Shown: piece after piece, positions 3,496-6,495 of the stretch
How the letters are laid out: the number at the start of each line of letters is the position of its first letter
How positions within the stretch are numbered: position 1 is the first letter of the stretch
Assembly: GCA_038046585.1 (NCBI GenBank)
Contig: JBBSVX010000016.1
Span: forward strand, 1 to 51,112
DNA: 51,112 bases
Direction: 5' to 3'
DNA from: an archaeon
GTDB taxonomy: Archaea > Iainarchaeota > Iainarchaeia > Iainarchaeales > JAAZKV01
Translations under genes and position numbers: made by a program
Notes under the pieces: model-generated
Databases searched by the model: none
The model's input: the letters and a program-made list of their open reading frames with translations, nothing else
Told to the model about the DNA's origin: nothing

Positions 3496-6495
3496 ATGAC
3501 TCGCCTAATAAAACTGACTCTAAAGAACTTCAAATCATTCAAAAAAGCTGAAATTCCGATAAGCAAAGGATTCACTTCCATAGTTGGAAGCAATGGATCT
3601 GGAAAAAGCAATGTTCTTGACGGATTATTATTTGTTCTTGGAATCACTTCGCTTAAGACACTAAGAGCTTCAAGGCTTTCCGACCTGGTTAATGACGGAT
3701 CAAAAGAAAGCTACGCCAAGGTTGACTTGATTGTAAAGCATGCCGACAAGCAGTATGAAATAAGCAGGATGATAGACAAGCAGGGAAAGAGCGTTTATCG
3801 ACTTGACGGAAAAAGAACTACTCTTAACGAAATTTCTTCACTTCTTACTGAACTAGGAATAGATGTCACTGGCCACAACATCGTTGCTCAGGGGGATATC
3901 ACAAGAGTGATTGAAATGTCCTCAATTGAAAGAAGAGAAATTATAGATGATTTGGCAGGCTTAAGCGAATTTGACGAAAAAAAAGAAGAAGCCCTTAAGG
4001 AGCTTGACAAGGTTGACTCAAAAATAAAAGAAGCCACCATTATTCTTAACGAAAGGAACGCATTTTTGGTCGAACTTGAAGAAGAAATGAACGCGGCGAA
4101 AGAATTCACAAACCTTGAGACCGAAAAGAAAAGAATCAAGGCAACTATAATTGGAAGAGAAATATCAAGCATAGATAAGAGGCTGCTCGAAGTTGACACT
4201 GAGCTTAGAGGACTTGAAAAACAAAGAACAGAAATCGAAGAAAATATTGTAAAAGCGCGAGAAGAACTTTCAAAGGCGAAGTCCGAATCCTCCGAAATGG
4301 GGAAGATAATGCTCAAAACAAGCGAAGAATTATACATAACTATAGGTCGGGAATTTGAAGAAAAAAAAGGACAATTAAGATTAGAACAGGAAAAGATTGA
4401 ACTAAAAAAAGAATTGATACAAAAGAACAACCAAAAACTTGATGAAAACCAAAAAGAAGCGGAGAGCGCAAAAAAAGAGGCCAAAGAGAATGAAATAAAG
4501 CGAAAACAACACGAACAGGAAAGAAAAGAAACTGAAAGAGAATTTAACGCGGTGCAGAAAAAGAAAGAGGCCCTTGAAAAAGTTGTCAAAGGAAAGAACG
4601 AAGAACTGCGAAAGTTAGAAGCCGAAATTGATTCACTAAACAAAGAGATAGACGAAGGAAGAAAGGAAATATTTGACCTTGAAGTATTTTTCAAGCAGTG
4701 GGATAGGCAAAAAGCATACAATGAAAAGAAACTTTCAGAACTTGCACAAGAAGAAACGAGTCTCTTAGGAGAAATCGCAAAAATAGAGGAGAAAAAAAAG
4801 AAGCTTGGAGAGCATGGAGACGCAGGCAAAATAGAGAAGGATATTGCAACTCTTGAAAAAACTCTCGAGGAAATGGTTGAGGATCAGACCCGTACAAGCG
4901 CCCAAAAAGAAGCCGAAGAGAAGGCAATTAATGACTTAAAAAAAGCGCTTTCAAAATGCCCTGTTTGCGATTCTATGCTTGAAGAAAAGAAAAAGAAAGA
5001 GCTGATTGAAACAAAAAAGAAGCTAATAGAAGAGCATGAAAAGAACGAAAAACGCCTTACAAAAGAAATTGTCGAGCAAAAGCAAAAAACTACCGAAACC
5101 AGAGACAAACTAATGATGATTACAAAGCTCCTGGCAGAAATTGGACACGAAAAATCAGTTCAAACTAGACTTACCGACGCAAGAACAAAAATAACTGTGA
5201 TGAAAAAGGAGCTTGAGCAAAAATCGTTTGATGAGCAATTGGGAAAAAGAAACAGGCTCAATGAAAAGATAAAAATCTCGCTCACAAAAAGAGACGCTTC
5301 CAAAGAAAGGCTTGCAGCGCTAAGAGGGCAAAACATTTTCGAAGAATTTTCTGTAGCAAATAGGGAATATGAAGATCTGTTTAACAAAAAGTCGCTCATT
5401 GAGGCAATCCTTAAGGAACTTGAATCAAACACAAAAATACTTTCCGAAAAAGCGGAGTCTTTGCTAGTGGAAAACTCAGGCCTTGAAAGCGAAGTTGCCG
5501 CCCTCAAAAAAGAAATCCGCGACAAGGAAGACCTCGTTAAGGACCTGGGAAAAGATGTTTCTACAAAAGAGGACGAGCTTGAGAAAGCCAAAAAGAAGAA
5601 CTCTATAATGGGAGATGAAAAGGAAAAACTTGACAAAAAAATAGAAAGAATGGACAAGGATATAATTGCCGATTCAATCAAATCAAGAAAACTTGAGATG
5701 AGACAGAACGAATTTTCTATCGAAAAAAGCAGGATTGAAGTCAGAGTAAACGATCTCAAAGAAGAAGGCAAGGCATACTTGGGATCAGAAACTATAAGCG
5801 AAAAGACAGTTGAAGGACTCCTAGAAAGACTAGATACGGTCGAAAGAAGACTTGGCGAAATAGGCGCTGTAAACCTTAAAGCATTAGGAAACTTCACAAA
5901 TTTAAAAGGCGAAGTAAGTGAAATACAGGAAAAAGCAACAAAGCTTGCTGAAGAGAGACTTGCTGTGCTTGACATGATAGACAAGATAGAATTTAAGAGA
6001 ACGAACGTGTTCATGGATTGCTTTAGCGTAATAAACAAAAATTTCCAGGACATGTTTTTGAAGTTCTTCAATGGGGAAGGAAATCTTACCCTTTCGGAAG
6101 CAGAGAAACCGCTTGAAAGCGGACTCATAATTGACGCAAGACAAAAAGCAGGAAAACTTCAAAACATTGATTCCATGAGCGGAGGAGAGAAGACACTCAC
6201 CGCACTTGCATTCATGTTTGCGATACAATTATACAAACCCGCGCCGTTCTATGCGTTTGATGAAGCCGATGCGGCGCTTGATAAAGAAAACTCGATGAAG
6301 ATGGGCAACCTTATTGAAATGATAGCTGAAAAGAGCCAATTTATTGCAATAACCCACAACGATACCATAACTAAGAAGGCTGATCAGATAATCGGAGTAG
6401 CAAGGGCAAAAGACGGCAGCTCTGTAATAGGACTTAGACTTAAAACAAACGAAGAAGAAATGAGCGCACAAAACCAGAGTCAAGATGCCAATTAA
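3496..6495 (+). CDS. smc: SMC-family ATPase with SMC-type heads, long coiled coil, a central CPVC hook and no recognisable hinge
   Basis: N-terminal head: LKNFKSF, Walker A [31 protein letters not shown]. C-terminal head: [36 protein letters not shown] and QFIAITHN. About 650 aa of K/E-rich coiled coil lies between them, with CPVC at aa 488-491 (nt 4957-4968). Confidence 0.85.
   Translation: [999 protein letters not shown]

Follow-up and report, generated by a model that had tools for sequence, protein, structure and literature searches.

The window analyzed here is a 51,112-nucleotide (nt) stretch of DNA from an archaeon of the Iainarchaeota (GenBank assembly GCA_038046585.1, contig JBBSVX010000016.1, positions 1 to 51,112). 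At 3496 to 6495 on the plus strand, it contains a gene with an ATG start that encodes a 999-amino-acid (aa) protein of the SMC (structural maintenance of chromosomes) superfamily. This protein is probably the organism's own Smc, the ATPase of prokaryotic condensin, in which a Rad50-type zinc hook of ~13 residues has replaced the ~200-residue hinge within one lineage of the DPANN archaea. It combines SMC heads and arms of approximately canonical length with a predicted hook at the place of the hinge. We infer a chromosome-organizing function and a kleisin partner for it.

Predicted zinc hook at the apex

The protein carries a CPVC motif at its midpoint (aa 488 to 491; nt 4957 to 4968). A midpoint CP[VTILF]C was present in 117 of the 120 closest homologues, which are 38 to 64% identical. 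Intein-bearing members and one fragment only appear to have lost it. In an alignment of 43 orthologues, no column between E222 and D753, an arm stretch of ~530 aa, was invariant except C488, P489, and C491. The CPxC is kept in that alignment across sequences 37 to 64% identical. Its conservation is far beyond chance. The initial annotation had proposed conservation of the CxxC in orthologues as a check on its reading, and the motif held up in both sets.

An apex profile was made from aa 440 to 540 of 36 members. Against the PDB, it matched the Rad50 hooks of Pyrococcus furiosus (1L8D, E = 4.7e-12; 6ZFF, E = 9e-12) over ~95 residues, and the next-best match reached only 6e-3. The Pfam family Rad50_zn_hook (PF04423) was matched by all 36 apex segments (best, 1.8e-7), and the Rad50 model PRK03918 was matched at its hook position by the same number (best, 2.3e-11). 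The hook region of the archaeal SMC-related proteins (ASRPs) was matched by 32 segments and Rkd4 by 17. By profile homology, the apex is a Rad50-type zinc hook. This agrees with the initial annotation, which had seen the CPVC as embedded in coiled coil in the manner of the Rad50 hook.

An AlphaFold2 (AF2) model of the apex alone was a helical hairpin with CPVCDS as its turn (predicted local distance difference test [pLDDT] score, 92.9). A Foldseek search with this hairpin gave only matches with E > 0.1. Among them, 1L8D ranked second, with a template modeling (TM) score of 0.83 under both normalizations.

Given its homology to the Rad50 hook, and because the two cysteines of one chain cannot fill a tetrahedral site alone, the apex would be expected to bind zinc and to dimerize through it. 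Each chain would fold back on itself as an antiparallel coiled coil. One Zn2+ would be shared between two chains, bound by the four cysteines of their CPxC turns. The result would be a constitutive homodimer joined at the apex, with SMC-type heads whose ATP-dependent engagement and disengagement would be that of canonical Smc.

Absence of the hinge

The hinge is absent. The Pfam model SMC_hinge (PF06470) had no match in the 999-aa protein. This negative is meaningful because the same model detects the hinges of other DPANN SMCs at 1e-28 to 1e-31. A locally built hinge hidden Markov model (HMM) was negative on all hook forms. The NCBIfam SMC profiles aligned in two collinear stretches, aa 6 to 487 with profile positions 4 to 488 and aa 498 to 976 with positions 697 to 1174. 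The ~200 hinge positions between these stretches were skipped.

A full-length AF2 model of the monomer was obtained with a pLDDT of 78; the AF2 models all represent monomers. It contains no globular domain between the helices at aa 157 to 483 and those at aa 497 to 759, which are separated only by a turn at aa 484 to 496. The two-stretch profile alignment, the PF06470 negative, and the AF2 model together indicate that a 13-residue turn has replaced the hinge and that the arms have about their canonical length. A MAFFT multiple alignment put the hinge gap away from the apex. Coiled-coil alignment is ambiguous in this respect, and HMM alignments and AF2 were used instead. The initial annotation had likewise seen no hinge, and none was found by Pfam, NCBIfam, or AF2 when a hinge fold was sought in aa 400 to 600.

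Protein anatomy and ATPase heads

The N-terminal half of the ATPase head comprises aa 1 to 165 (3496 to 3990, plus strand). It contains FKSF (aa 12 to 15), Walker A (GSNGSGKS, aa 31 to 38, within GSNGSGKSN at aa 31 to 39), R57, and the Q-loop residue Q132. The Smc head structure 5xei aligns with aa 4 to 253. The C-terminal half comprises aa 831 to 985 (5986 to 6450, plus strand). It contains the signature motif MSGGEK (aa 894 to 899), Walker B (FYAFDE, aa 918 to 923), the D-loop, and the H-loop residue H954. The longer stretch MSGGEK...FDEADAALD spans aa 894 to 929, and QFIAITHN spans aa 948 to 955. The initial annotation had quoted such motifs, among them two further head motifs at aa 132 to 141 and aa 154 to 163, as well as the CPVC. 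Each was found where it had been placed.

The ascending coiled-coil arm comprises aa 166 to 483 (3991 to 4944, plus strand). It is supported by the AF2 helix at aa 157 to 483 and by collinearity with SMC_prok_A, and the neck at E165 to L191 is conserved. The predicted zinc-hook turn (aa 484 to 496; 4945 to 4983, plus strand) follows and is the sole nonhelical stretch of the apex. The descending arm comprises aa 497 to 830 (4984 to 5985, plus strand). It contains the AF2 helices at aa 497 to 759 and is collinear with the SMC_prok_B profile from position 697. The ascending helix has a single break at aa 440 to 443, and the descending helices have breaks at aa 549 to 552, 572 to 576, and 610 to 614. 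By the AF2 helices and the profile alignment on both sides of the absent hinge, the arms are ~320 to 340 residues per strand. The arm region totals 665 residues, 45% of which are K, E, R, or D, in line with the ~650 aa of uninterrupted K/E-rich coiled coil reported in the initial annotation. P489 is its only proline. The whole protein has three cysteines (residues 488, 491, and 842).

The heads are SMC-type and not Rad50-type, as the initial annotation had judged from their motifs. Pfam SMC_N covers aa 4 to 975 (E = 1e-42). The NCBIfam model SMC_prok_A (TIGR02169) scored 529.7 bits, and the Rad50 models of NCBIfam scored 43 to 95 bits, against cutoffs of 700 to 1087. In sequence comparison with the PDB, the Pyrococcus Smc head 5xei was the top match (E = 2.7e-87; 297 bits), followed by eukaryotic SMC1 to SMC4. 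The best Rad50 reached 65 bits and RecN reached 33 bits. A Foldseek search with the AF2 model gave target-normalized TM scores of 0.81 to 0.87 to crystal structures of Smc heads with ScpA. Walker A, R57, the Q-loop, the signature motif, Walker B, the D-loop, and the H-loop are invariant in the 43 orthologues. The equivalog cutoffs were missed for both TIGR02169 (529.7 versus 729.4 bits) and TIGR02168 (410.5 versus 567.35 bits), and the shortfall corresponds to the absent hinge positions.

The protein could instead be a divergent Rad50, a double-strand-break repair ATPase that acts with Mre11 and is not an SMC. In favor of this reading, the long coiled coil is tipped by a CxxC hook homologous to that of Rad50. 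The heads speak against it, with 297 bits for Smc versus 65 for Rad50 in the PDB and 530 versus at most 95 in NCBIfam. Neither the window nor 10 related loci, including the syntenic ones, yielded a gene for Mre11 or another metallophosphatase. A Pfam scan of the window open reading frames (ORFs) of at least 120 aa, taken as genes, also found no Mre11 and no second smc. The gene furthermore lies in the same slot as hinge-bearing SMCs (see below). We consider a Rad50 identity already contradicted and highly improbable.

Genomic slot and orthology

The smc gene lies in a conserved genomic slot. The order is L44e (minus strand), a membrane protein gene (plus), smc (plus), a Lon_C-domain gene (minus), and then P1-L10-L1-L11-Spt5-SecE-FtsZ (minus). 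The full slot is present in the window and in three related loci (L001, L002, and L004), whose SMCs are 41 to 59% identical. At least the part from L44e through the membrane gene to smc is present in L088, which is more divergent, in L089, which has a 772-aa short-arm hook form, and in L090, which has a hookless form. The hinge-bearing SMC P0142 occupies the same slot in L091, between L44e and Lon_C. The hinge-bearing, intein-containing P0149 does so in L093, with the full ribosomal-FtsZ cluster downstream. A Micrarchaeota hinge SMC adjoins the same ribosomal/FtsZ cluster.

Neighbor-joining (NJ) trees were restricted to head and neck columns. In these, all 40 hook forms fall within a smallest common clade that also holds 11 hookless forms, two forms with a possibly degenerate apex, and exactly the two same-slot hinge forms. 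Its sister group consists of DPANN hinge SMCs. The same-slot hinge SMCs and the head tree argue that a single orthologous smc locus can be in either the hook or the hinge state. They also argue that the protein is the lineage's Smc and not an extra paralogue. The initial annotation had suggested a divergent chromosome organizer, and positional orthology with hinge-bearing SMCs strengthens the case for that putative function.

Another explanation is an extra SMC-related paralogue, similar to ClsN, Sph, and other ASRPs or to arcadin-4, that has a specialized role while a canonical Smc-ScpAB is encoded elsewhere. Zinc hooks are known in archaeal SMC-related proteins (PMC9389158), and the apex matches of 32/36 to the ASRP hook region and 17/36 to Rkd4 would fit such a protein. 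The window protein scored only 90 bits on the ASRP model NF045487, however, against a cutoff of 300 and an SMC score of 530, and the ASRP alignment was restricted to the C-terminal head. Its arms are about canonical in length and not like those of ASRPs, which are proteins of ~600 aa. Hinge SMCs in exactly the same slot of related genomes point to orthology. None of the 26 nearest hinge-type clusters was on a contig that matched a hook contig in size. A specialized paralogue is distinctly unlikely.

The protein might also be an ATPase that serves in defense against plasmids or phages, such as LmuB of Lamassu, JetC of Wadjet, or mad3 of MADS. It matched the PADLOC models for mad3 (E = 5.6e-49) and LmuB (2.4e-16), and the adjacent Lon_C protein is weakly similar to BrxL. 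Control housekeeping SMCs, including Staphylococcus Smc, scored 163 to 240 bits on mad3 and 80 to 102 bits on LmuB. The window protein scored 166 and 58 bits. A defense role is contradicted because the housekeeping controls match these models equally well or better. The neighborhood is also one of housekeeping genes (ribosomal proteins, Spt5, SecE, and FtsZ) and not a variable defense island. The surrounding window is ordinary archaeal chromosome, with L44e, L10, L1, L11, Spt5, FtsZ, TBP, AglB, and a large glycosylation island. We give the defense explanation almost no credence.

Distribution and variant forms

When 1.84 billion cluster representatives were searched exhaustively, 27,847 SMC-superfamily matches were obtained. 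The best 150 of the 27,847 had a midpoint CPxC without a hinge, a hinge without a CPxC, or neither; none had both. The hook form is conserved in >100 sequence clusters. Named members are labeled Candidatus Diapherotrites, Candidatus Iainarchaeum, archaeon GW2011_AR10, and in some cases Micrarchaeota. DPANN archaea, mainly Micrarchaeota, are also the source of the nearest hinge-bearing relatives. NCBI records call these hook proteins "AAA family ATPase," a name that may stem from a score below the TIGR02169 cutoff. A contig profile scan with the family alignment returned, among the matches listed, mostly bacterial canonical SMCs recognized through generic Walker motifs. It was the source of the canonical DPANN and bacterial SMC controls.

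Other variants were also seen. Short-arm hook SMCs were represented by P0143 (772 aa; L089, 10001 to 12319), P0140 (807 aa), and P0139 (810 aa), with the CPxC at about aa 376 to 395. P0143 is in the same slot as the window gene. The short-arm forms resemble a natural "mini-Smc" in which each arm is ~100 residues shorter. P0196 and P0217 (1076 to 1084 aa) have a noncoiled apex of ~100 residues without a CxxC, are negative with the hinge HMM, and group with the hook forms in the head tree. Their apex may be a degenerate hinge. LAGLIDADG inteins were present near the P-loop in both hook- and hinge-type orthologues (P0104, P0112, P0117, P0128, P0149, and L007). The intein carriers include the archaeon GW2011_AR10 protein and P0149 (L093, 10001 to 15346).

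Points against a hook-type Smc

Several observations weigh against a Smc that is joined by a zinc hook. The window protein's own apex falls short of the PF04423 cutoff (18.2 versus 24.3 bits). The structural match between the apex and 1L8D is not significant (E = 0.26), and Foldseek does not discriminate among such hairpins. The Pfam scan of window ORFs described above found no ScpA and no ScpB. The sole check for a second hinge-bearing SMC elsewhere in hook genomes is the contig comparison of the 26 hinge-type clusters. Bootstrap values of the key nodes in the NJ trees are weak (25 to 51%), and for this reason we make no claim on a single origin or on the direction of change.

No kleisin gene was found within 10 kb in related loci. 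The absence of scpA from the window weighs little, since the gene is not adjacent to the examined hinge-type DPANN SMCs either. The absence of adjacent mre11, scpA, and scpB had been recorded in the initial annotation, and the Pfam scan bears it out.

The hookless forms also count against the interpretation. Eleven hookless and hingeless relatives of ~905 to 950 aa (P0105, P0116, P0120, P0122, P0127, P0132, P0135, P0136, P0138, P0146, and P0152) branch among the hook forms of the head tree. One of them, P0105 (924 aa; L090, 8311 to 11085), is in the same slot and is preceded by the same membrane gene. The presence of these relatives among the hook forms indicates that the hook is dispensable in some members.

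The same relatives bear on the possibility that the protein is an orthologous Smc in which the CPxC turn makes no zinc link between two chains. The turn would then be a tight turn, a redox site, or another metal site, and dimerization would occur through the heads, the kleisin, or the arms. The persistence of a hookless, hingeless relative in the same slot (L090) implies that an apex bridge is not indispensable in the clade. A tetrahedral site needs more than the two cysteines that one chain supplies, however, and the similarity to the structurally characterized Rad50 hook spans ~95 residues. Strict C-P-x-C invariance at 37 to 64% identity also exceeds the needs of a turn. We regard a turn without a zinc bridge as very unlikely, and a Smc with a Rad50-type zinc hook remains our interpretation.

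Comparison with known systems

SMC proteins are often defined by their hinge, to which an important mechanistic role is ascribed, for example as a DNA-binding site and as a putative gate for DNA entry.

The only evidence so far for a bona fide Smc that works with a zinc hook is one Bacillus subtilis chimera (PMC5344682). In this engineered Smc(Zh), the P. furiosus Rad50 hook was put in place of the hinge, and the protein "supported normal growth" (Burmann et al. 2017). Because the chimera grows normally, a zinc-hook Smc is feasible. Like the archaeal protein, it combines Smc heads and arms with an archaeal Rad50 hook at the hinge position. The chimera is artificial, whereas the archaeal hook Smc is natural, occurs in >100 clusters, and would have evolved in situ. 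If our interpretation is correct, an archaeal lineage with a hook Smc would show that evolution made the same substitution as the chimera. It would also support models in which the arms and heads, and not the hinge fold, carry the essential mechanics. With its hinge, hook, short-arm, and hookless forms and those with a degenerate apex, at one locus or a related one, the lineage would provide a natural series on which to ask which Smc functions need the hinge, as well as material for biochemical work.

The protein resembles prokaryotic Smc (Smc-ScpAB; TIGR02169 and TIGR02168) in head sequence and fold, ATPase motifs, neck, and arm length and in the slot it shares with hinge DPANN SMCs. It differs from it in the 13-residue CPxC turn at the place of the hinge and in scoring below the TIGR02169 cutoff. 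It resembles the Rad50/SbcC hook (PF04423; 1L8D and 6ZFF) in having an antiparallel coiled coil with a CPxC at its apex (profile E = 5e-12). Its heads are not Rad50-type, and it has no Mre11 partner nearby. The motif of the hook Smcs continues as CPxC[DE], whereas the P. furiosus Rad50 hook is CPVCGR. An SMC hinge is also reported to substitute for the Rad50 hook (PMC6969161).

ASRPs (ClsN and Sph1/2) are archaeal SMC-superfamily proteins with a zinc hook, but they belong to a different family (PMC9389158). Like arcadin-4, they are similar to the window protein in being archaeal members of the superfamily with a hook, and the hook regions cross-match. The ASRPs are much shorter than the 999-aa window protein (593 positions in NF045487). 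An oceanic cluster of "hinge-less" SMCs is bacterial (Actinobacteria affiliated) and explicitly without a CxxC hook (Sussfeld et al. 2025, PMC12153180). It is likewise an SMC lineage that lost the hinge, but the present family comes from archaea and carries the hook in conserved form.

In a survey of archaeal SMCs, those of DPANN are regarded as canonical and the word "hook" does not occur (PMC8665677). No prior description that combines SMC, zinc hook, and DPANN was found in the searchable literature. A natural zinc-hook Smc conserved across a DPANN lineage would be new; the same swap is known so far only from the engineered Bacillus protein. Surveys of DPANN condensins could miss hook Smcs or lump them with canonical SMCs, because these proteins score below the curated SMC cutoffs and are deposited as "AAA family ATPase."

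Neighboring genes and candidate partners

(a) Membrane protein. The gene directly upstream of smc (2724 to 3485, plus strand) encodes a polytopic membrane protein of 253 aa from its ATG, with an alternative TTG start at 2715. It is PF10110-like and ends 10 nt 5' of smc, as the initial annotation had reported. Its hydropathy profile has four hydrophobic blocks, two of which are long enough for two transmembrane helices each. In 9/9 hinge-less loci, an HMM of this family matched the ORF immediately upstream of smc, at a distance of 3 to 69 nt, and PF10110 was matched by five of eight family members. A similarity search with the membrane protein alignment gave only five matches; the word prefilter performs poorly on hydrophobic, fast-evolving sequences.

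The membrane gene at first seemed to track hinge loss, with 9/9 hinge-less loci versus 0/7 hinge loci. This was overturned by L093, in which a hinge-type smc is also preceded by a member of the family (E = 1.3e-17). The membrane partner was present in 10 of 11 loci; L091 and the Micrarchaeota hinge locus are without it. The operon thus belongs to the lineage's smc locus and not to the hook. The initial annotation had named conservation of the upstream gene in orthologues as a second check, and the gene is conserved in all of the hinge-less loci but is not specific to the hook. The conserved operon makes membrane association of the SMC possible, although the operon is not hook specific.

(b) Orphan protein. 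A 295-aa protein with an N-terminal winged-helix-like region is encoded at 1304 to 2191 on the minus strand. It is restricted to the lineage and syntenic with the locus. The family has 140 detectable members, all in the same archaeal lineage. Of nine hinge-less smc loci, seven have it downstream of L44e. Among the 34 contigs of at least 20 kb that carry the family, 21 equal hook-SMC contigs in size. The 295-aa protein had no Pfam or NCBIfam match. It was considered as a divergent ScpA, ScpB, or kite protein and rejected: a 41-sequence profile matched no SMC accessory subunit in the PDB (ScpA, ScpB, MukE/F, or Nse). The best PDB match of that profile was PCNA-like and nonsignificant (E = 0.06). 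Association of this orphan with the SMC is possible.

A broader remodeling of the smc locus can be imagined, with a zinc-closed apex, a cotranscribed membrane protein, and the winged-helix orphan. Such a system could tether or organize a small chromosome at the membrane, and its accessory subunits would be unlike ScpAB, possibly with no canonical kleisin. We consider this rather unlikely.

(c) ORFs 3' of canonical smc genes. The ORFs directly 3' of canonical smc in L008, L010, L012, and L014 were considered as kleisins and rejected. They are not ScpA but a metallo-beta-lactamase and an unannotated family. A conserved gene of ~340 to 354 aa is found at this position in L010 (11572 to 12636), L014 (10206 to 11243), and L012 (6572 to 7591). 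The hosts are two Micrarchaeota and Methanothrix. The gene had no Pfam match at E ≤ 0.001 and encodes a conserved SCSMLPxLHRGD motif. We take this motif to resemble that of signal peptidases.

(d) Flanking slot markers. Ribosomal protein L44e (2265 to 2657, minus strand) is the conserved divergent neighbor. The conserved convergent neighbor is the 817-aa Lon_C-domain protein (6514 to 8967, minus strand), which showed no sign of being a partner and is noted for context only. Its Lon_C domain is near the N terminus (aa ~55 to 225). No AAA+ domain was detected in it, and the match to BrxL was weak. It is conserved beside both hook and hinge smc loci.

Other features of the window

A 180-aa ORF at 14803 to 15345 (plus strand) had no family match. 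It is probably the shadow of a minus-strand gene. The 156-aa ORF at 14850 to 15320 (minus strand) is probably ribosomal protein L11, judging by its position and by the 156-aa L11 in the syntenic L001. The region from ~19700 to 45900 is an island of sugar-nucleotide and glycosylation genes. It encodes AglB/STT3, many glycosyltransferases, methyltransferases, epimerases/dehydratases, and a flippase-like Polysacc_synt protein. The island is flanked by genes for giant surface proteins, one with FG-GAP and Big_7 domains (9075 to 12776) and one with Big_13 and fn3 domains (46965 to 49649).

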